Positions 19 through 64,000 of a stretch of DNA of 64,000 nt are shown here, piece after piece; within the stretch, counting starts at the first letter, position 1, and each line of letters begins with the position of its first letter. The notes under the pieces were generated by a model. That model ran no database searches. It saw only the letters and a list, made by a program, of their open reading frames with translations, and was not told the origin of the DNA. The DNA comes from Oceanispirochaeta sp. (GTDB lineage: Bacteria > Spirochaetota > Spirochaetia > DSM-2461). Position numbers and translations under genes: made by a program. The stretch is from contig CAXXOA010000003.1 in the NCBI GenBank assembly GCA_963666275.2, forward strand, positions 317,806 through 381,805, read 5' to 3'.

Positions 19-2016
19 CTACAGTGTGTCGTCATCTCCCAGGGCGGTTGTCTGGAGGGGGCTTTTAAAATAGAAAAAGATGACACCGATAATAAGGCAG
101 TTCACAATAGAGGCGGTAGCAAAAAGATGCCACTGGGGCCGACCCGAGGAAAGATTCCCCACCAGGGAGAAGAGCTTGATGCTGATTGTGAATTTCTCCT
201 CCTGATTCAGAAAGAGCAGGGGAGCCATGAAACCGTTCCAGGCGGAAAGGAAGGCCAGAATCCCGTTTGTGGTCAGGATGGGTAAACTCAGGGGGAGTAT
301 GATTTTTACCATATATTTCAGAGGGGAAATCCCTTCCAGTTCGGCCGCCTCCCTGTAGGCGGGAGGGATTTTCTCAAGATAGGCGATAGAGGTTATCAGC
401 CCTGTGGTCAATGAGTGGTTCAGATAGATCAGGATCAGGGGGAGATAGCTGTCCAGAAGGTGGAGCCTCCGGAAAAGGGCGTACAGGGGGATCATGGAGT
501 GCATTCCCCCGTAAAGCCCTATGATCTGGAGCCCTGTGATGACCGCAAAGACTGTTTTCACTCCCCGCTCTCTGAGAACCAGCGCCGAGGGAAGGACTAT
601 AAACGGAGTCAGTATCCCCGCAGCGGCGGCAATGGCCAGGGTGTTGAGAAAATAGTGCAGTATATTCTCCTCCACCAGGATCTTTCTGTAGTTGGAAAGG
701 GTGGCAAAGGGGGGAATCAGCGAATCAATGGAACAGGCACCGATGCCGGAAAGGCTGAGCCAGATCACCAGGAAGAATATGAGCAGTGAGGCAGCCATAA
801 AGGTATACTTTAAAAGAGCGGTCCCCGCAAGGTGAAGGGTATTCCTGATTTCCGGAAACAGGAGCCGGGAATCTGTCTTTTCCTCCTGCTGCGTGACCAG
901 AAGGGGAATCAGGGCCACCAGGATTTCCGGGTGGAACCCTTCGAAAAATCCGGCTTTGAATATCCAGCGGAGATTGATAAGGCAGTGTACCAGAAAGACT
1001 GTCATATAGGACTTCCTGCTGCGGAACCAGGCCGCCAGGTAGATCCCTCCCCAGATAATGCCCCATATTCCTCCCATAAGAACCTGGGAGACTACAAGGA
1101 CTATGAGGGGGATCCTGTGTGATCTCTTCTCCCTCCTCGCCGCCAGCCATAGGCCCATGAGGACGATCACAAGCCCGGCCAGACAGACTGCATAGGCCGA
1201 TGTTATCCCCAGATCTTCTGTGGTTTTGAACACCTCATAGAGGAATATGTCCAGTGTGGTTGTAGCCCCGATGATATGGCGGTTTGTCATGCCTGATACC
1301 AGGGGAGGGCCTCCGGTGGTCATAAGGAAGAGCAGGTTGAACTCTTTGAAAAACTTGAGAAAGTTGATAATTGTCATGGCCCCGATGGAACCCCGGATTT
1401 GGGGAAGCAGGATTTCTTTGAAAATAATATAGGAGTTGGCCCCGTCGATCCTGGCCGCTTCCGAATAGGACAGGGGGATCTTCCGGAAGCTTCCCCAGAA
1501 GAGAAATGTCATGAAAGGAACTGTCATCCAGAGACTCACCCACAGGGCTGCCAGAAAGGCGGCGACCGGATCGTTCATCAGATCTACAGGGATCCTGAAA
1601 AGAGTACGGAACAGGGAGTCTCCTCCGTCTCCATGAAAAAACGAACGCCAGAGCGGAACCGCTATATAGATGGGAGTTCCCCAGGGTACCAGGAGGGAGA
1701 GATAGAGCAGGGTGATCTTTTTCTTCTTTCTGCTCAGGTACCAGGCCAGTTTCAGAGATATCCCCAGAGAGAGCACCGTGTTGGCAAAGGCCCATAAGAG
1801 GCTTATTTTGAAACTGTATAAAAAACCTTTATCTGAAAGAATATAGAGATAATTGTCCAGGCCCGCTGCTGTCCGCCGGCCGTATATGTCATGGAAAAAG
1901 GAAGTGAAAACAGCTTCGCCGAAAGGGGCTATACCCACAAGCAGAACAATCCCGGCCATAGGCAGGAGCAGGAGGCTGTCTGCGGGAAATCCCTTTCTTT
2001 TCAAAGCTGTTTTCAA
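19..2016 (-). CDS. Fused carbohydrate-type (CUT1) ABC permease with MalF-like and MalG-like halves in one polypeptide
   Basis: 665 aa hydrophobic ORF with two EAA loops (YSEAARIDGA, YREAAELEGI). The N-half has GLDNY and LMTTGGP; the C-half has TLSNY and FLSAWNGF. TTG start. Confidence 0.88.
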   Translation of the reverse strand: MKTALKRKGFPADSLLLLPMAGIVLLVGIAPFGEAVFTSFFHDIYGRRTAAGLDNYLYILSDKGFLYSFKISLLWAFANTVLSLGISLKLAWYLSRKKKKITLLYLSLLVPWGTPIYIAVPLWRSFFHGDGGDSLFRTLFRIPVDLMNDPVAAFLAALWVSLWMTVPFMTFLFWGSFRKIPLSYSEAARIDGANSYIIFKEILLPQIRGSIGAMTIINFLKFFKEFNLLFLMTTGGPPLVSGMTNRHIIGATTTLDIFLYEVFKTTEDLGITSAYAVCLAGLVIVLMGLWLAARREKRSHRIPLIVLVVSQVLMGGIWGIIWGGIYLAAWFRSRKSYMTVFLVHCLINLRWIFKAGFFEGFHPEILVALIPLLVTQQEEKTDSRLLFPEIRNTLHLAGTALLKYTFMAASLLIFFLVIWLSLSGIGACSIDSLIPPFATLSNYRKILVEENILHYFLNTLAIAAAAGILTPFIVLPSALVLRERGVKTVFAVITGLQIIGLYGGMHSMIPLYALFRRLHLLDSYLPLILIYLNHSLTTGLITSIAYLEKIPPAYREAAELEGISPLKYMVKIILPLSLPILTTNGILAFLSAWNGFMAPLLFLNQEEKFTISIKLFSLVGNLSSGRPQWHLFATASIVNCLIIGVIFFYFKSPLQTTALGDDDTL

Positions 2017-2030
2017 TTTACCTGAATTCT

Positions 2031-3404
2031 CTATTCTACAATCAGTTTACTGATATTCCTTACGGCTTTGATTCCATCGGGAACCAGAGCGGCATTCTGA
2101 TCCCAGACAAGCACCAGGGGCCTTTCCCGGTCCGAGAGTTCCGAACCGTCTCCGTAGTACATGGCCAGGATGACATCCTGATTTCCGATCACTTCTGAGG
2201 CATCAAGGGTAATGGAAAAACCGTCTTCCGCCTCCAGAGTCACCTGATTCACACCGTCATAGCGGCTGAACATCTCAAACAGAGGCAGGCCCATATACTC
2301 AACGGAGGATTCGCTTTTTCTGTCGTAGTAGGAAACTACAGATTTATGGGTGGACACTCCGCTCTGCAGGGTCTGGCGATCAAAAACTTCCTTCCCTCCG
2401 GGACCGTCCATGGTTATGGCAAAATCAGTGAAGGATTCCTGACTGATCATGATCTTCTTCACCATTCTGGCTGAAACATGACCTGTAATTTCAGGATTTT
2501 CGGGCCCTACTTTTACAAGACGGATATAACCGGGATCTTCGGGCATATACTCACCGTTCTCTTTGAATGCCAGGATCCAGGTGCCGTTCTCCTGATCCAG
2601 CAGCTGGCTGCCGCTGTAGTCCATCTCATAGCCGTCCATCGCCTGGATTGTGATTGTCATATCCTCTGTCAGGGTGGTGTAGTCGTTTATGAGATCCACC
2701 AGCTTGACCCCGCCCCAGGTGTACTGGAAGTTATTTCCGTAGGAGTTGGTGTAGTTCCCCCTGTCTTCCAGATAGTAGGGGTGATTCTCCATCTCGGAGA
2801 TGGTAAAGGAGGCATTTTCGGAACCGATTGACAGGAGCAGCTCGAAATCGTTGGTTTCCAGAGACACAGGCTGGAGTCCCAGGCTGATGGAGGCAAGATC
2901 TCTGACCCAGTACTGGCCTGAAATATCGCCGATCAGGGTCGGGGCCATGGGGCTGCCGTCCTGACTGATCCCCAGGTAGAGATCCCCGGGATTGAAATCC
3001 GAAGTCATCAGAGTCTGGGCATAGCCGTCCCCGGCGGTCAGGGTCAGTTCATACCCTGCAGTCCATTTTTCCGTCCGGAAGGATGCGGGCATGGAACCGT
3101 CCGCATCATCTACCATGGCGATGATCTCTTTCAGGGGAAACCCCTGGTAACTGTGGAGTTCCCCTTTTTTCTCGTATTCCAGCGGCACGAGAAGCTCCGG
3201 GTTCTGCTGGATCCAGCTGTTCAGGTTGGATTCCCATACTTCATCGTTTCGCACTCCCGACAGCTCTATCTTCCAGCCTTCCCCTTTGGGGGTTGCCTGG
3301 GAGACGGCATCGGGAGTCGTACCTTCATGATCTGTTGAGGCACAACCGGTCAGAACCAGGAACCCCATGAGTGCCAGGAGTCCTGCTGCAAACATTTTCT
3401 TCAT
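2031..3404 (-). CDS. Lipoprotein with three tandem molybdopterin-oxidoreductase-like (Oxidored_molyb/sulfite-oxidase-fold-like) repeats
   Basis: Lipobox LTGC. Three repeats: YQGFPL..AGDGY..VRDLASI, WGGVKL..AMDGY..ARMVKKI and YMGLPL..AEDGF..VRNISKL. RBS AGGAGA. Confidence 0.75.
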   Translation of the reverse strand: MKKMFAAGLLALMGFLVLTGCASTDHEGTTPDAVSQATPKGEGWKIELSGVRNDEVWESNLNSWIQQNPELLVPLEYEKKGELHSYQGFPLKEIIAMVDDADGSMPASFRTEKWTAGYELTLTAGDGYAQTLMTSDFNPGDLYLGISQDGSPMAPTLIGDISGQYWVRDLASISLGLQPVSLETNDFELLLSIGSENASFTISEMENHPYYLEDRGNYTNSYGNNFQYTWGGVKLVDLINDYTTLTEDMTITIQAMDGYEMDYSGSQLLDQENGTWILAFKENGEYMPEDPGYIRLVKVGPENPEITGHVSARMVKKIMISQESFTDFAITMDGPGGKEVFDRQTLQSGVSTHKSVVSYYDRKSESSVEYMGLPLFEMFSRYDGVNQVTLEAEDGFSITLDASEVIGNQDVILAMYYGDGSELSDRERPLVLVWDQNAALVPDGIKAVRNISKLIVE

Positions 3405-3427
3405 TTTTTTCTCCTATCTGTTCAGCC

Positions 3428-4921
3428 TCAGGGGCTGTTTTTCAGCTCTTCATCCAGAAGGCTCTGCCCTCTGTCCAGAATCTGTTCGGTCGTCAATTGT
3501 CCTGAAAGGGCGAAACGAAGCAGTTTCCACATGATATTTTTATACACGGTAAAAGATTTCTGCGAGGGGATCACGGTTCCATCCGCAGCGCTGTCCAGCA
3601 TTATCCTGTAGTAGGGGTTTCTGTCCCCGACCAGATTCGCCGCTTCTGTGTTGGAAGGAAGCTTGGTCAGGGCAATGGGAAAGTCCTGCTGGTATCCGAT
3701 TCCTGTCAGATGCCCTATGAGAGCCCGGGCAAGGAGGGGATTCCGGGATTTTCCCGTTATGGCGAATGCTTTAAAGTCCAGCAGGGGAGAGACTTGTTTT
3801 CCGGTTGTTTCATTCCGGGGAAAACCGGCAATACCGAAGGGAATCCCCAGCTCCTGGAAAAGAGGGATTGTATAGGAGGCGGATAGGATGACTGCCGCTT
3901 TTCCCGTGGCAAAATAGGAGGTCATGGCGTCCCTTTCCAGGGGCTTGAAGTAATCAGTATCCGTAAGGGCTGTCAGGTATTCCAGAGCCTGTCGGGTGGG
4001 CCTGTCATTGACAGTGATTGTACCATCCCTGTTGAGAATCTCCTCTTTGCCGAAGGCTGCCTGAAAGGGGATCAGCCAGTTGATGGAGTAGGCATTCCAT
4101 GTCAGGGGCACTTCTACCTTTCCTGTCAGAGAGGACGCCAGGCTCTCCAGCCGGTTCAGAGTCAGATCAGGGTACCGGGAAAGATCAATATAGTCGGGGT
4201 TATAGAAAATGAGCTGCGTATCGTAGTAGAAAGGGGCGGCCCACTGTTTCCGTCCTGACTGAAATGTCCTGTTTCCCCGGGAGTCCAGAGGGGAGGCTAT
4301 CCAATCGGGAATGGTCTGCAGGGCTTCTGTCCGGATTAGTCTGTTCATGTCTCCCGCAGAAACCATAATCAGATCCGGTACATCCCCGCCGCCACGCAGG
4401 ATGGACAGGTATTTGGATGCGGGATCCGGAAGGGTGGTTACATGGATCTCCAGACCGAAACGGGCGGCGTAGGACTCTATCTCCTCTTTCAGCTCCTTTG
4501 TTCCTTCCCAGCTGATCCAGACTTCAAGCTTCGTATTCAGGAGCTTTTCACCTGCAATATCGATGGCTCTGATATCCCTGAATACCTGTCCGTTCTGCCA
4601 GTGAAGATCCCATGTGCCCGGTGAGCCTTCTATCAGGCAGGTCCTGTTTATACTATCGGGAAAGGACGCAATCCGGAGGGATTCCTGAGAACCGCCGCTC
4701 TTGATATTCAGTTCCCAGGCGTCGTAGAGAGGGGGGAACAGATCGCTGAGAACCATACCCCGGGGAGAGTTCTCTCCCGGAAGGGCATAGGCTCTCCGGG
4801 TAAGCTCCCCGTGAGGATAGCTGTTCCGGAGTTCTCCGTTCAGAGTTATGTCTAAGGCGCTCACCGACAGAAGGGGCACGAAAAAAAACACTGTCATGCA
4901 GTGCTTCAGAGTTCTTTTCAT
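3428..4921 (-). CDS. Extracellular solute-binding protein (family 1, MalE-like) with an extra N-terminal domain
   Basis: Signal peptide followed by SBP_bac_1-type motifs (GGDVPDLI, APFYYDTQLIFYNPD, FATGKAAVI). Start moved to ATG 4921, which follows GGAAAGGAAG. Confidence 0.82.
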   Translation of the reverse strand: MKRTLKHCMTVFFFVPLLSVSALDITLNGELRNSYPHGELTRRAYALPGENSPRGMVLSDLFPPLYDAWELNIKSGGSQESLRIASFPDSINRTCLIEGSPGTWDLHWQNGQVFRDIRAIDIAGEKLLNTKLEVWISWEGTKELKEEIESYAARFGLEIHVTTLPDPASKYLSILRGGGDVPDLIMVSAGDMNRLIRTEALQTIPDWIASPLDSRGNRTFQSGRKQWAAPFYYDTQLIFYNPDYIDLSRYPDLTLNRLESLASSLTGKVEVPLTWNAYSINWLIPFQAAFGKEEILNRDGTITVNDRPTRQALEYLTALTDTDYFKPLERDAMTSYFATGKAAVILSASYTIPLFQELGIPFGIAGFPRNETTGKQVSPLLDFKAFAITGKSRNPLLARALIGHLTGIGYQQDFPIALTKLPSNTEAANLVGDRNPYYRIMLDSAADGTVIPSQKSFTVYKNIMWKLLRFALSGQLTTEQILDRGQSLLDEELKNSP

Positions 4922-4926
4922 AGGGT

Positions 4927-5025
4927 CTTCCTTTCCAAACACGGGAGGTAGGACTGTTTCCGGTCCTACCCGGCGGCTCAGTTTTCATGACAGACATCTG
5001 TTTTAGAAATATGAGCTCGGAAGTC
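4927..5025 (-). ncRNA. Moco RNA motif / molybdenum- or tungsten-cofactor riboswitch candidate (RF01055-like), P3-less form
   Basis: The minus strand reads GACUUCCGAG-CUCAUAUUUCUAAAACAGAUGUCUGUCAUGAAAACUGAG-CCGCCG-GGUAGGACCGGAAACAGUCCUACC-UCCCGUGUUUGGAAAGGAAG. P1 is CUUCC/GGAAG, P2 has a CUAA..AUG receptor-like loop, and P4 has a GAAA tetraloop. The 3' CUCCCGUnUUUGGAAAGG matches the E. coli moaA leader. Confidence 0.88.
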
Positions 5026-5045
5026 GATTCTTTTATATCGATTGA

Positions 5046-5074
5046 ATTGTAACAGGGATTTACTTTTATGGCAA
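5046..5074 (-). promoter_or_regulatory. Sigma-70 promoter for the riboswitch operon
   Basis: Minus strand TTGCCA-17 nt-TACAAT with an extended TG, about 20 nt upstream of the riboswitch. Confidence 0.75.
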
Positions 5075-5232: not shown

Positions 5233-5868
5233 ATGCAGGGAATTGTCAATTATCCGATGTTTCTTCTGGCGGGTATCCTTCTCAATATCACCCCCGGAGC
5301 CGATACCATTTACATACTCAGCCGCAGCGTCGCCGGAGGCCGGAGTGCGGGGATCCTGTCCACTTTCGGCGTTTCTACAGGAATCCTGGTCCATACCACA
5401 CTGGCAGCCCTGGGACTGTCGGTGGTACTCAGAGAATCCCTTTTTCTCTTCTCTCTTGTGAAATATACAGGAGCGGCCTATCTTGTCTTTCTGGGAGCCC
5501 GCAGCCTTCTGCAGAAAAAGGGGGAAATGTTTGGCCTGGACAGACCCGGCAGACAGGAGGCATCCCGGTGGAAGCTCTATTTTTCCGGTGTTCTCACCAA
5601 TGTGCTGAACCCTAAGGTGGCCCTGTTCTTTCTGGCTTTTCTCCCGCAGTTTATCAATCCTGCCCTTCCCCGGCCGGGCTCGTCCTTCTTCCTTCTGGGA
5701 TTGACGTTCACCTTTACAGGGACTCTGTGGTGTCTGTTCATAGCTGTTGTGGCATCCAGAGTCTCCCGGCTCCTCAGGGAGTCTCCCTCCTTTTCCATCC
5801 TTCTGGAAAAAATGGCCGGAGCTGTCTTCCTGGCTCTGGGGGTCCGGGTCGCCCTGAGTAAAAGCTGA
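5233..5868 (+). CDS. LysE/RhtB family amino-acid exporter
   Basis: 211 aa hydrophobic protein with TPGADT and TNVLNPKVALFFLAFLPQF motifs. Confidence 0.92.
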   Translation: MQGIVNYPMFLLAGILLNITPGADTIYILSRSVAGGRSAGILSTFGVSTGILVHTTLAALGLSVVLRESLFLFSLVKYTGAAYLVFLGARSLLQKKGEMFGLDRPGRQEASRWKLYFSGVLTNVLNPKVALFFLAFLPQFINPALPRPGSSFFLLGLTFTFTGTLWCLFIAVVASRVSRLLRESPSFSILLEKMAGAVFLALGVRVALSKS

Positions 5869-5947: not shown

Positions 5948-7465
5948 TTAGGGGAGAAAAAACGGGGCATGATTGGCTGTGAAAACAGGAGGGGTTCGTT
6001 TCAGTATGGTCCCCAGTTCGGGGATCTTGCGGAAATCTCTGTCCAGAAAATCCCTGACCTGCCTTCTGTTCCACCCCTCGGGATGGGCGAATTCGCTGTA
6101 AAGGGAGAGGTCTCCGTCATAAAAACGGTTTACCGCCAGGTCCTTTGCTTCTTCACTTCCTATGGGCATATTGAAAATAGAGACATTCAGAAAATCAATA
6201 TTCGCCGCGTTCTCCAGAACATAGTCCCTTGTGCGGAAGGCTTTTTCCCGGTTTTCCGATGGGGTTCCGAACATGATATACACATAGGTCCCGATCCCCG
6301 CCTCTTTCAGATTGGCCAGTATGGTCTGCACTTGATCCGTGCGGATGCCCTTTTTCAGGCTGTCTAGTACGGTCTGATCTCCCGATTCCAGTCCCAGGCA
6401 GAGCATGACGCATCCCGATGCCGCCAGCTTGCGGCAGTAGGCTGCCCCTGTCATTTCGGGAAGGAAACGGCTGAACCCGTACCAGGGGGCTCCCGGGGGA
6501 TGATTGAGGATCTTCTGCATAAACTGCCGGCTGATTTCACTGTCGCAGAGATGGATCAGCCGGGGTTCGTGCCTCTCCGTCAGGGTTCTGAGCTGTTCCA
6601 GCGACTCCTCCGGCGGGTCTTCGCAGTAGGGGTTGTCCTCCCACAGTTCGGAGCAGAAGGTACAGCGCTTCCAGGAACATCCCAGTGATGCGGTAAAGGG
6701 CAGAATTTTTCCGGGAGTGAGATAGTCCCTGCCCGGCTCTCTTTTGTAGATCTCGTCAAAAAAGGGCGTTCCCGGGCCTTTGTACTCCCTGCCTGTAAAC
6801 TTGACTATCTCCTCTTCGCCCGGTCCGTTCTGGACCCTGTGGGCCAGCTGGTAGAGGAACACTGTATCTGAGGGGCCTTTGATCCAGGAGTTGATCAGTC
6901 CCCCGCCGAGCTGTACTTTCACTCCCGGAAAGTTTTTGCGGATAAAACCGCACATGGCCATTCCTGTGAGAGCCTGACTCAGATAGCCCAGGGAAATCCC
7001 CACGAATTTCTCGCCGCTTTTCTGAAGCAGTCCTGTCAGACGGCGGGAAAACCAGGGATAGAAAAGGTTCTCCTCCGGGTGTTCCCAGCTGTGGATCAGA
7101 TCCTTTGAATTCAGCGGTGAAAGCTGAGGATCCTGATAGTTGGCAGGCGAGACAATCACATTCCGGGAGGCTGCAGGAAGGGCAGAGGCTGCCATGTAGC
7201 GGATATGGGATACCTTTTTTTTGTACTCTTCGAAAGTGAGGGGATCTCCTGTGAACTGCAGAAAGTGATCTTTCCTTTTCCGGATCATCAGGGATTTGGG
7301 ATCCTCCGGATTGGCAGGGGGCTGGTCACAGAGCCAGTGAAATCCTTCGAGAGCCCCGTCCAGAAGGGTCACCGGTTCCCCTGCCGTGATGAGGGCTCCC
7401 GCCAGACGGGAGAGGGCTACGGGTGGTTCGCAGTTCCGGACCTGAGGAGGATGGATCAGGAGCAT
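5948..7465 (-). CDS. Radical SAM protein with a probable N-terminal cobalamin-binding-like domain
   Basis: CxxxCxxC motif (CSWKRCTFC) and GLESG. N-terminal LIHPP..PPVAL..LAG, VGISL and LGGG are typical of class B radical SAM proteins. Confidence 0.85.
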   Translation of the reverse strand: MLLIHPPQVRNCEPPVALSRLAGALITAGEPVTLLDGALEGFHWLCDQPPANPEDPKSLMIRKRKDHFLQFTGDPLTFEEYKKKVSHIRYMAASALPAASRNVIVSPANYQDPQLSPLNSKDLIHSWEHPEENLFYPWFSRRLTGLLQKSGEKFVGISLGYLSQALTGMAMCGFIRKNFPGVKVQLGGGLINSWIKGPSDTVFLYQLAHRVQNGPGEEEIVKFTGREYKGPGTPFFDEIYKREPGRDYLTPGKILPFTASLGCSWKRCTFCSELWEDNPYCEDPPEESLEQLRTLTERHEPRLIHLCDSEISRQFMQKILNHPPGAPWYGFSRFLPEMTGAAYCRKLAASGCVMLCLGLESGDQTVLDSLKKGIRTDQVQTILANLKEAGIGTYVYIMFGTPSENREKAFRTRDYVLENAANIDFLNVSIFNMPIGSEEAKDLAVNRFYDGDLSLYSEFAHPEGWNRRQVRDFLDRDFRKIPELGTILKRTPPVFTANHAPFFLP

Positions 7466-7466
7466 C

Positions 7467-8477
7467 TCAGAGGCTCTCTTTTCTGTAGGTCATGGTCATT
7501 TTTTCAAGGTCCCGGCAGATTTCATCTCTCAGATCACGGGGTTCCAGGAGTTCCGCCTGGTCTCCGAAGGACAGGATCCAGCTTTTAATATCCCGTCGTC
7601 CGGATGTGGTCATTTTCAGGATCACCGATCCGTCGCTTCCCAGGGATATTTTCTGATTGGGTGTCCACTGCCTTTCCCGGATATACCGGGACTGGGCGGG
7701 GGCAAAACGGACTGTCACATTCAGAGGTTCATCCCAGTTGATTCCCCAGGCTCCGCCGAGAAGCTGCTGAGGATCAATATCCACCGGTTCTTCAAAGCTT
7801 TGTTCCAGAACCTCCAGGCTCGTGAATCTCTCTACCGCTGTGGTCCGGATGGTTTTCTCAGGCAGGGTCTGGATAAAGCAGTAGAGCCCGTCGTTCCACT
7901 CATAAAATCGCAGGGGGTTGAACAGGATCTCCTTTTTTGTGTTGTTCCGGAATGAGAAATATTCCGCCCTGCAGGTCCGGCGCTCAATGGCTGCGGAGAT
8001 CAGCTCCTCCAGGAGCCTCTCCTTGCCCTCCAGGTTTTTGAATTTCCGGGGAACCGAAAGGAATACACGGGAGAAGCGGTCGATCAGTGTCTCCTCTTCT
8101 GTTTCGAGATGAAACTTTTCCAGTCTTGTCTTCAGGGTCTGTATGGTCTGTTTCAGCTCGGTTTCGTAAAGAGCAGTGCTTCGGGAGAGGATCAGGTAAA
8201 GCACAAGGACTTCTCTTTTGTTCAGTTCCAGACGGGGAACCCTGCCCTTGGGGGCTCCCTGGAAATAGTCCTCCATGATGCACCAGCGTTTCTGTTTTTC
8301 CGGATTCTCCAGCTGCATAAGGGGAAAGCCCAGCTCTTCGAAAGATTCGAAAAGCCGGTATACCGAGCGTCGGCTGATACCCAGTTTTTCCTGCAGGGTG
8401 GCTATTGTTACCCCTGAAGGATGGGAGAGAAGTTCAAAACCGTTGAGAAACTGTACAAGATTCCTGGCTGCAGGCAT
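7467..8477 (-). CDS. WYL-domain transcriptional regulator (HTH-WYL-WCX; PafB/YafY-like)
   Basis: HTH (LGISRRSVYR), WYL core (NPLRF..GLYC..RTTAVERF) and WCX (WILSFGDQAELLEPRDLR). The start could be 8477 or 8489. Confidence 0.9.
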   Translation of the reverse strand: MPAARNLVQFLNGFELLSHPSGVTIATLQEKLGISRRSVYRLFESFEELGFPLMQLENPEKQKRWCIMEDYFQGAPKGRVPRLELNKREVLVLYLILSRSTALYETELKQTIQTLKTRLEKFHLETEEETLIDRFSRVFLSVPRKFKNLEGKERLLEELISAAIERRTCRAEYFSFRNNTKKEILFNPLRFYEWNDGLYCFIQTLPEKTIRTTAVERFTSLEVLEQSFEEPVDIDPQQLLGGAWGINWDEPLNVTVRFAPAQSRYIRERQWTPNQKISLGSDGSVILKMTTSGRRDIKSWILSFGDQAELLEPRDLRDEICRDLEKMTMTYRKESL

Positions 8478-8644
8478 GATTATCCACATTAATCCGAAAC
8501 ACTTTATTGGTAAAGCGTAAAGCTGAATTTTATGTCTTTTCCGTGACTGAGGGGGACTCCGGTTTTCTGCAGAAAATCATTGCTTCCCGGGACTATATTC
8601 AATATTTTATATAAATAGAAACTAAAACATCAGGGAGAGTATCT

Positions 8645-55313: not shown

Positions 55314-56855
<1,542 letters not shown>

Positions 56856-57113
56856 AGCGTGAAAGGTATAAAGACCTTGAGTTTGTACACTTAAAGGCAG
56901 TGAGTCACTGAGTAATCGGTGCACTACTGATCATATATGGCTTGGCTTTCGTCAACTACTTCTAATTTCCCTATGGATCATCCTGCAGGTATTTATGCCG
57001 GTGAGGAATCCGACTCTTTTTATATAAAATCCGTCTTTGGACGGTCGTTTTATCCGGTTTGACTGGATGGAATGCTTTTAAATAGGTAATAGCGAAGGGA
57101 TAAATAATAATAT

Positions 57114-60045
<2,932 letters not shown>

Positions 60046-60219
60046 ATATTATTATTTATCCCTTGGTTGCAGAGGCGAGCAGTAAATCTCTGATTTACGA
60101 CCAGCCTTTGAGATATAATTTTTATTCTGCTTTGAATTGCAGAAATAAATTATATCGTGTTATTTATAGAAATTAGCAGTTAACGCTGTTGATTATATAT
60201 AGTGTGCTTCTGCACACAA

Positions 60220-60327
60220 TCTGGTGGCTATTGCGTTGAGGTTATACCCGTTCCCATCCCGAACACGGAAGTCAAGCTCAACTGCGCCGATGGTACTGCT
60301 ACGGTGGGAGAGTAGGTCGTCGCCAGT
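60220..60327 (+). rRNA. rrf: 5S rRNA (operon 1)
   Basis: CTGGTGGC...CCCATCCCGAACACGGAAGTCAAG...GGGAGAGTAGGTCGTCGCCAG. Confidence 0.97.
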
Positions 60328-60332
60328 TCAAT

Positions 60333-60364
60333 CGCCCCCTGTCTTCGGACAGGGGGCGTCTTTA
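60333..60364 (+). terminator. rRNA operon 1 terminator
   Basis: CGCCCCCTGTC-TTCG-GACAGGGGGCG followed by TCTTT. Confidence 0.85.
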
Positions 60365-60554
60365 AGAAAAATCAGAATATCAGAATAATTCGCATTAGAT
60401 TTGATACGGCTTTTGATGTGTTTCATGTTATTTGCTATATCAGGATCCCGATGCTGTTACTCAGAAAGCCCGTCTGTAAAATAACCGGGAAAACCGGTTT
60501 GTTCAGGCAGAATGGACTGTTTCTGTAATATTGCGAAAAAAATCCTGAAAAGGG

Positions 60555-60701
60555 TTTACAAAGGAAGTCATATTCAATATGATCATCCTCGCGCCTCAAG
60601 AAATTGATGCGCAAATGGAAATGATAAATAACTGCCTTGAAAAGATTTAAAATATTTTTTTTGAAAAGCGGTTGACAAGAAATAGTAGTAACTGCTATAA
60701 C
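60555..60701 (+). promoter_or_regulatory. Tandem sigma-70 P1/P2 promoters of the second rRNA operon
   Basis: P1 TTTACA(60555)-17-TATGAT and P2 TTGACA(60672)-18-TATAAC. Confidence 0.75.
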
Positions 60702-60711
60702 TTGTATCACA

Positions 60712-60728
60712 TTGGCACGGAAGTTGCT
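60712..60728 (+). promoter_or_regulatory. Sigma-54 (-24/-12) consensus in the second rRNA leader
   Basis: TTGGCACGGAAGTTGCT, identical to 54942-54958. Confidence 0.65.
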
Positions 60729-61083
60729 AATGGTTCTTTGAAAGAGTAAATAGAGAAGGGAAATTGAAGTATTTGACGAAAGTCAAGTCCATTGCGAATC
60801 ACAGGCACTTGTGCCGGGGATCGCAATGATTGGTAGTATGTTCGGATCGCTGATCTTTTTAGATTGACGGTCCGCCCACTATGGTTCGGTTAAGGTTTAT
60901 CTGAAGCCGTGACCATTAAGATTCCGTTCCTCGGCACTAGTGCCTGTGGTACGGAATATCGTTAGTTTTCTTTTAGAGATAAAGGGAATCTGACTCACTT
61001 TGAAGCGGATCAGGATGATTACATTCGACAGTATCTGTTTTGAAGCTTTGATACGAACTTATCCACTTCGGTGGATAAATTAT

Positions 61084-62625
<1,542 letters not shown>

Positions 62626-62883
62626 AGCGTGAAAGGTATAAAGACCTTGAGTTTGTACACTTAAAGGCAGTGAGTCACTGAGCAATCGGTGCACTACTGA
62701 TCATATATGGCTTGGCTTTCGTCAACTACTTCAAATTTCCCTATGGATCATCCTGCAGGTATTTATGCCGGTGAGGAATCCGACTCTTTTTATATAAAAT
62801 CCGTCTTTGGACGGTCGTTTTATCCGGTTTGACTGGATGGAATGCTTTTAAATAGGTAATAGCGAAGGGATAAATAATAATAT

Positions 62884-64000
<1,117 letters not shown>

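Follow-up and report, generated by a model that had tools for sequence, protein, structure and literature searches.

A P3-lacking Moco RNA leads an operon encoding a candidate pterin cofactor importer in Oceanispirochaeta sp.

Introduction

For the molybdenum cofactor (Moco), the categories listed in the available text of Sun et al. 2013 (PMC3766115) are molybdenum (Mo) or tungsten (W) transporters and Moco biosynthesis, and Moco uptake is not among them. RNAs of the Moco motif that lack the P3 stem have been linked to tungsten use, in a study that did not demonstrate direct ligand binding by the RNA (PMC2408646). Here we describe a three-gene operon led by an RNA of this P3-lacking, tungsten cofactor (Tuco) type in a 64,000-nucleotide window of the genome of Oceanispirochaeta sp. 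(assembly GCA_963666275.2, contig CAXXOA010000003.1, positions 317,806 to 381,805). The genes encode a secreted solute-binding protein (gene 1), a lipoprotein with three repeats of the sulfite oxidase (SUOX)/PruR fold (gene 2) and a fused permease (gene 3). We propose that the operon imports a metal-loaded pyranopterin cofactor, probably its tungsten form, under feedback repression, a reading that is drawn from comparisons of sequence and predicted structure and that we hold to be about as likely as not.

The RNA is typical of its class in matching the full model and in having a Shine-Dalgarno sequence inside P1, as in the E. coli moaA RNA (PMC2408646). It is unlike known Moco RNAs in its target, which is a CUT1-type ATP-binding cassette (ABC) unit and not a Mod, Tup or Wtp transporter, moa genes or enzyme genes. 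PruR is a periplasmic, Cys-free protein of the SUOX fold that was crystallised with neopterin (PMC11194511). The gene 2 product is similarly exported and Cys-free in its SUOX-fold repeats (Z 14.6–15.8 per repeat against PruR structures 7kp2, 7kom, 7rkb and 7kos), and these have a D-G-Y/F motif at the position that motif mapping assigns to N102/Y104 of PruR. However, PruR is a single 170-residue domain whose partner is a DcpA/DTB regulator or kinase, whereas the gene 2 product has three tandem copies, a lipid anchor, a transporter as its partner, no PW motif, Lys or Arg at the mapped W160 and a long hairpin in its second repeat. The repeat fold is also that of SUOX, SorA and MsrP/YedY (PF00174; Z 11.6–15.7), but the repeats lack the metal-ligating Cys (a Ser or Thr lies near that place in the second repeat), there is no dimerisation or heme domain, and the protein is not a predicted catalyst.

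The transporter components resemble CUT1 MalEFGK and the T. maritima MalE1/E2 proteins in their MalE fold (Z 40) and in MalF- and MalG-like halves with EAA loops, and resemble maltodextrin importers in an ATPase apparently supplied in trans. They differ from those importers in their low identity (~22%), an extra N-terminal domain, the fused permease, the accessory lipoprotein, and control by a cofactor riboswitch where sugar importers are under a sugar regulator. Riboswitch-controlled importers for coenzyme salvage include BtuFCD, ThiBPQ and the energy-coupling factor (ECF) system YkoEDC. As in those systems, a coenzyme-sensing RNA would repress an importer that coexists with biosynthesis genes, although the transporter class and the capture domain are different. 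A coenzyme-sensing RNA repressing a coenzyme importer is a known kind of regulation; what would be new here is the cargo, together with the domain that captures it and the CUT1 architecture. In the text available of PMC7849362 the only organism named as taking up Moco is C. elegans, with the transport pathway called unknown, and PMC13259868 calls the way in which pterins cross bacterial membranes unknown. Our literature search identified no description of the operon or of a prokaryotic Moco or Tuco importer, with subscription papers and the gene-context supplements of PMC2408646, PMC3766115 and PMC11725836 lying outside its scope.

Results and Discussion

The leader RNA

An Rfam scan of the window identified a single match other than rRNA, to the Moco RNA family RF01055, with a score of 77.6 bits (E 4.6e-17) that is far over the gathering score of 36. 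The alignment ran from one end of the model to the other but lacked the P3 stem, a deletion that places the RNA in the Tuco class. The 3' strand of P1 ends 5 nt upstream of the ATG of gene 1 at 4921, and the start codon was 3–12 nt past this strand in 42 of 44 homologous riboswitch matches. Folding of the leader gave a P1 pair probability of ~0.49 and two folds of nearly equal energy (-45.9 and -45.8 kcal/mol). By analogy with the E. coli moaA RNA, the RNA is likely to shut off the operon when cofactor is plentiful.

A promoter-like site ends 12 nt upstream of RF01055. Sites of this type were at chance level in the region (7 found versus 4.0 +/- 2.5 in shuffles), and it is the placement of this one just before the RNA, not the rarity of such sites, that makes it credible. 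A terminator-like hairpin with a U-run (4885–4907, minus strand) was also present inside the first codons of gene 1, again at chance level (6 versus 5.7). The preliminary description of this DNA had proposed the Moco RNA, with a P1 strand doubling as the ribosome binding site of gene 1, and the promoter; the RNA and its geometry were confirmed by these analyses, and the promoter stands as a suitably placed site of a type that is not above chance in the region.

The host genome has two further RF01055 copies, one heading tupABC-moeA-moaA-moaC-MOSC-mog-like genes and the other a Tat-linked ydhYVW-type aldehyde oxidoreductase (AOR) operon. The RF01055-led ydhY/V/W-type AOR operon at G000:C1:305367-310651 (L141) has FdhD and TatC, suggesting a periplasmic W or Mo enzyme.

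The lipoprotein and its repeats

Pfam detected only one PF00174 stretch in the gene 2 product (aa 222-327). The three repeats (R1 to R3) emerged from profile comparison by HHalign (R1-R3 98.6%, R2-R3 94.6%, R1-R2 77.9%) and from the AlphaFold model, whose mean predicted local distance difference test score was 87 and which had a disordered linker followed by three similar domains with a repeating secondary structure. The molybdopterin-oxidoreductase-like triple repeat of the preliminary description was thus upheld by two approaches, with the fold being that of SUOX/PruR. Fold searches matched R2 to PruR 7kp2 with Z 15.8 and an rmsd of 2.6 Å over 133 residues, and R2 and R3 to sulfite oxidase with Z ~15, while unrelated folds started at Z 5.4. 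PF00174 was detected in 41 of 42 R2 members; searches of PDB sequences with the whole lipoprotein or R3 returned nothing relevant.

The lipobox cysteine, C21, is the only cysteine in the protein, and because of this we do not consider gene 2 to encode a catalytic SUOX enzyme. Across 120 homologues no Mo-ligating Cys was conserved in the R2 hairpin. The same homologues had a strongly conserved R2 pocket, with D257, G258, D290, P291, G292, R295, H309, S311, R/K313 and M314 invariant and Y259 kept in all except one (119/120). In a weak profile alignment (E 0.17) D257, R295, S311 and R313 align with D161, R207, S218 and K220 of plant sulfite oxidase, which we take to be Moco contacts. By motif analogy with the PruR sandwich, Y or F follows D-G in all repeats and the PW motif (W70) is missing. 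R2 also retains a long hairpin that PruR has lost. The SUOX basic residue and this hairpin would fit a pocket suited to a larger phosphorylated pyranopterin better than to a simple pterin.

The lipoproteins of two loci (L064:7953-8936 and L068:2967-3950) are shortened to 327 aa with R1 and R2 only, from which R3 appears to be dispensable. A single-domain 178-aa PF00174 lipoprotein with an ordinary PruR-type look (L128:1423-1956) was seen in a genome without the operon (G008).

The same domain on ECF importers

The two most distant loci among the relatives are ECF importer operons (L093:6297-13129 and L092:7785-14622). Each has genes for an exported protein with several repeats, for an ECF ATPase and for a T-component, and in both the repeat is found at the C-terminus of a metallophosphoesterase and of an ECF S-component (PF09819), as Cys-free domains of the SUOX fold. 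The ECF-linked domain matched R1, R2 and R3 at 97%, 94% and 97%, respectively (HHalign). The L093 operon is part of a tupB-moaA-moaC-MOSC-moeB cluster and is preceded by a P3-less RF01055 and tupA. ECF systems import vitamins and metals. That a pterin-pocket domain is fused to the subunit with which an unrelated importer captures its substrate is our strongest independent argument for a role of the domain in cargo capture. A search with the S-component fusion gave 699 matches with names mostly from Bacillota; gene context was examined for L092 and L093.

The binding protein and the permease

The three minus-strand genes are separated by gaps of only 23 and 14 nt. The gene 1 product has a MalE fold over aa 122-489 (P0121 numbering) with Z 40.1, and T. 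maritima MalE is its closest relative among solved structures (22% identity). In the alignment to MalE the HD motif is missing and K453, an invariant residue, occupies the place of a MalE Trp, both the motif and the aromatic position presumably having functional roles in MalE. Several further lysines are invariant in the gene 1 family, which hints at an anionic, non-sugar ligand. PF01547 was the only Pfam match to gene 1, with none to PF13531 or PF12849 (ModA/TupA/WtpA type).

Gene 1 also has ~108 extra N-terminal residues that, based on the secondary structure of the model, are possibly a degenerate fourth repeat. HHalign comparisons of this domain to the lipoprotein repeats (0.7-6%) and to the ECF-linked copy (25.7%) were not significant, there was no Atlas match, and two fold searches with gene 1 were filled by its MalE domain. 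The N-domain is shared (E 2.7e-15) by a 406-aa secreted protein at G000:C2:1404653-1405873 (L143), which has no NCBIfam match and whose gene sits downstream of a radical SAM gene and has no riboswitch.

The gene 3 product has a MalF-like half followed by a MalG-like half, with EAA motifs at aa 186 and 556. Scores against the NCBIfam MalE, MalF and MalG models were well under their cut-offs (35.7/291, 74.1/392 and 67.7/261 bits, respectively), as were those of ModB models on gene 3. These results agreed with the three tightly spaced genes, the family-1 binding protein with an extra domain and the fused MalF/MalG-type permease noted earlier. The three-gene unit has no ATPase gene; nine matches of >200 bits to a MalK-type query were found in the host genome, and a divergent MalK-like gene adjoins the cassette in L038/L039, L050, L057 and L058.

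Conservation of the cassette

We examined 92 loci. The binding protein gene was directly upstream of the lipoprotein gene in 70 of the 72 with enough sequence, and the lipoprotein gene was followed immediately by the permease gene in 71 of the 77 loci that could be scored for it. A riboswitch profile, built from 10 matches of which 7 were from these same loci, matched ahead of the unit in 54/63 loci and in none of the shuffled loci. After clustering at 90%, the riboswitch was ahead of the operon in 45 of 50 scorable non-redundant clusters, with 13 further clusters not scorable. Rfam RF01055 was directly before the binding protein gene in 7/10 loci and was found in 7 of 9 further loci, in 6 of them before the operon. 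All 15 Rfam alignments examined lacked P3, and a weak profile match in L082 was not confirmed by Rfam. Together, these data indicated the co-conservation for which a survey of homologous neighbourhoods had been proposed in the preliminary description.

Conserved copies of the cassette occur in Spirochaetota and Thermotogota (in the latter in metagenome-assembled genomes, MAGs), with named homologues from Spirochaetales, including Oceanispirochaeta. Among these are homologues of genes 1 and 2 in Oceanispirochaeta crateris, a cultured species. The distribution of the cassette is patchy, since a sample of 400 other genomes from across the phylum gave no match to it. The flanks vary, and linkage to AOR, formate dehydrogenase (FDH) or cofactor genes, which had also been suggested, was seen in some loci: an FDH/FdhD/MobA group in L019, AOR clusters in L041 and L082, and an AOR plus Mo-hydroxylase cluster in L105 and L106. 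No conserved glycosidase or LacI neighbours were seen by eye across these flanks, for which no systematic count was made. A quick tree of R2 was poorly resolved and was used for dereplication only.

Several variants were observed. In L007:4053-5193 and L008:11944-13087 the permease gene is followed on the same strand by genes for a NapH-like 4Fe-4S membrane protein and an FMN-binding protein (by Pfam in L007, apparent in L008). The Thermotogota version has a four-repeat protein of 617 aa (L070, L071, L074 and L077); in L070, L074 and L077 the permease gene lies upstream of it and is read from the other strand. In L109:6491-6681 an RF01055 with a ~70-nt insertion in P4 is barely over the gathering score.

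Tungsten enzymes and cofactor synthesis genes

With canonical AOR defined as a PF01314 match at E <= 1e-60, a threshold that we set, the operon was present in 7 of 19 genomes with canonical AOR versus 0 of 19 without it in a first genome set. In a second set, which was centred on a carrier, the numbers were 13/28 versus 1/73; related genomes in these counts are not independent. Canonical AOR was present in 20 of 21 operon carriers, and the operon in none of 16 moaC-positive genomes without canonical AOR. One negative genome, G453, is uninformative, its contig ending ~5.5 kb before the expected operon position.

Five carriers (G438, G028, G463, G515 and G518) combine AOR with 3-7 xanthine-oxidase-family genes and gave no match to MoaA, MoaC, MoeA or TupA, nor to MoeA_C. 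G438 is a single 3.29-Mb chromosome and G028 is 90% complete. The only RF01055 found in G028, G463 and G518 is the one before the operon. Over all 24 carriers, 12 had no MoeA_N match over the cut-off, three of these having a clostridial-type moa cluster. A genome screen with PF00174 for other repeat proteins was too insensitive, missing 10 of the 24 known carriers.

The host has tupABC-, moeA-, moaA-, moaC-, MOSC- and mog-like genes along with two AFOR-domain genes. Cofactor auxotrophy of the host (G000), considered at the outset in the form of missing moaAC or mod/tup genes, was rejected on this gene content.

Proposed function

In our proposed model, P1 would be open when cofactor is scarce and gene 1 would be translated, and binding of cofactor would close P1 over the ribosome binding site, a switch modelled on the E. 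coli moaA RNA. Cofactor that is free or has been released from proteins would be bound in the SUOX-type, Cys-free pockets of the lipoprotein, mainly R2, and the lipoprotein may shield it from oxidation before passing it to the MalE-fold binding protein and then to the fused permease. Transport would be driven by a MalK-like ATPase encoded elsewhere. For a host able to synthesise the cofactor itself, the system would serve to salvage or recapture it and so save on synthesis.

Several findings weigh against this proposal. The closest solved relatives of the gene 1 protein bind maltodextrins, and the position of PruR W160 is Lys or Arg in all three repeats by motif mapping, leaving PruR-type stacking unsupported. 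Free Moco is unstable and oxygen-sensitive (PMC7849362). The riboswitch is missing from 5 of the 50 scorable clusters, including that of G438, and many of the genomes are incomplete MAGs. MoeA_N is present in 12 of 24 carriers, including the host, so import is not needed for supply in these, and TupA is present in 8/24 carriers (15/26 for AOR-positive non-carriers). Among AOR-positive genomes the operon occurred in 8/16 without moaC versus 12/30 with moaC (p 0.55), so that moaC loss does not predict the operon. Of the 101 spirochaete genomes in the G443-G541 set, 63 had xanthine-oxidase-family genes and gave no moaC match, and 56 of these 63 are without the operon. Absence of moa genes alone therefore does not prove an import route, and another cofactor supply must exist in the 56 genomes. 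The seven of the 63 with the operon were 6/12 of those with canonical AOR and 1/51 of those without. The operon is therefore linked to tungsten enzymes and does not supply these spirochaetes with Moco in general. Of the Mo/W-cofactor role suggested in the preliminary description, the tie to cofactor rather than to sugars was retained (riboswitch, fold and AOR tracking), while salvage as it was framed there was not.

We considered other cargoes. A metal-free or damaged pterin (molybdopterin (MPT), dephospho-MPT, cyclic pyranopterin monophosphate (cPMP) or an oxidised product) that would regain its metal within the cell is unlikely. In its favour, domains of the PruR type bind small pterins without metal, there is a surface metallophosphoesterase in the ECF version, no other intermediate is as stable as cPMP (PMC2408646) and half of the carriers have MoeA_N. 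The other half, with or without a clostridial-type moa cluster, speak against it, and in the five genomes that also lack MoeA_C the known metal-insertion route is closed. Those carriers without MoeA would have no known route to use free tungstate either, which is one reason why we find it distinctly improbable that the operon is a non-canonical importer of tungstate or a W-complex. For that cargo, P3-less RNAs control TupABC in the host and in E. limosum (PMC11725836), the operon tracks AOR, 16/24 carriers are without a TupA match and the binding protein family has invariant Lys residues. On the other hand, eight carriers keep TupA in a separate unit, the binding protein is MalE-like and not ModA/TupA/WtpA-like, and three pterin-pocket domains would be superfluous for oxyanion uptake.

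The operon might instead import an organic substrate of a tungsten AOR, such as a sugar-derived aldehyde, and be merely co-regulated with production of the W-enzyme, a possibility to which we assign only a slight chance. The MalE fold, the CUT1-type permease and tracking of AOR rather than of moaC loss would all suit such a cargo, and Tuco RNAs need not mark cofactor import because in E. limosum they also control iron transporters and FocA (PMC11725836). However, a Shine-Dalgarno sequence in P1 predicts an operon that is off at high cofactor, the reverse of what substrate supply would need, the MalE aromatic position and HD motif are not kept, and the pterin-fold lipoprotein and its reuse on ECF S-components would be left unexplained. 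Least probable, in our estimation, is a redox or pterin-sensing role for the lipoprotein as a flavinylated protein of the periplasm (a PruR-like regulator or a cofactor chaperone for exported W-enzymes) with the transporter cargo unrelated or secondary. Its linker has a putative flavinylation motif of the form [DN]xx[ST]xA[ST] in 68/82 homologues of its own sub-clade, ApbE was present in 5/5 genomes tested, the permease gene of L007, and apparently that of L008, is followed by the NapH-like and FMN-binding pair, and the host has the Tat-linked AOR operon. Nevertheless, the motif is found in only 10/38 homologues of the other sub-clade and is non-canonical at the Gly position (SQAT), the canonical form being [S/T]GA[S/T] (PMC8238504). 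There is also no adjacent DcpA-type partner gene, and the lipoprotein gene lies between those of the binding protein and permease at the frequencies given above.

Taking cofactor import as the preferred reading, we tentatively suggest, with somewhat less confidence than in the import proposal itself, that intact W/Mo pterin cofactor is traded like a vitamin among anaerobic bacteria and archaea. The capture domain would have been attached independently to CUT1-type ABC importers (Spirochaetota, Thermotogota) and to ECF importers (Bacillota, archaea), both Tuco-controlled, and some cells would run W-enzymes without moa or moe genes. This suggests cofactor cross-feeding in anaerobic communities. 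The operon offers named, soluble and expressible proteins for testing cofactor uptake. It might also yield a natural carrier of a cofactor that is unstable, and a new genetic means of approaching the unproven ligand of P3-less Moco RNAs. A misleading annotation is corrected as well, since the genes look like those of a maltose transporter plus an oxidoreductase.

Features of the operon and neighbouring genes

Table 1. Coordinates of operon features in the window.
Feature	Position	Strand	Basis or detail
Moco RNA motif RF01055, P3-lacking (Tuco-type)	4912-5034	-	covariance-model match, full model 1-135
P1 3' strand GGAAG within Shine-Dalgarno of gene 1	4927-4931	-	pairs with CUUCC 5023-5019
sigma70-type promoter-like site	5046-5074	-	-35 TTGCCA at 5074, 17 nt, TG-extended -10 TACAAT ending 5046; consensus match
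Gene 1, secreted family-1 (MalE-fold) solute-binding protein, 497 aa	3428-4921	-	PF01547 aa 148-411
Extra N-terminal domain of gene 1, ~108 aa	4538-4861	-	model secondary structure resembles lipoprotein repeats
Gene 2, lipoprotein, 457 aa, lipobox C21, three Cys-free SUOX/PruR-fold repeats	2031-3404	-	
DAVSQAT, ApbE-flavinylation-like motif, aa 32-38, disordered linker	3291-3311	-	putative
Repeat R1, aa 43-178	2871-3278	-	HHalign 98.6% to R3, 97.2% to ECF-linked copy
Repeat R2, aa 184-323	2436-2855	-	best-conserved pocket
Repeat R3, aa 326-457	2034-2429	-	PruR 7rkb Z 15.3, rmsd 2.2 Å over 124 residues
Gene 3, fused MalF+MalG-type (CUT1) permease, 665 aa	19-2016	-	two PF00528 stretches

Elsewhere in the window, a LysE exporter gene (5233-5868) is divergent from the operon. 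At 5948-8489 on the minus strand a WYL-domain regulator is directly upstream of a radical SAM gene, whose best matches, all sub-threshold, were to B12-binding types. Two tandem rRNA operons (16S-23S-5S, then 16S-23S), ~750 nt apart, occupy 55314-64000.

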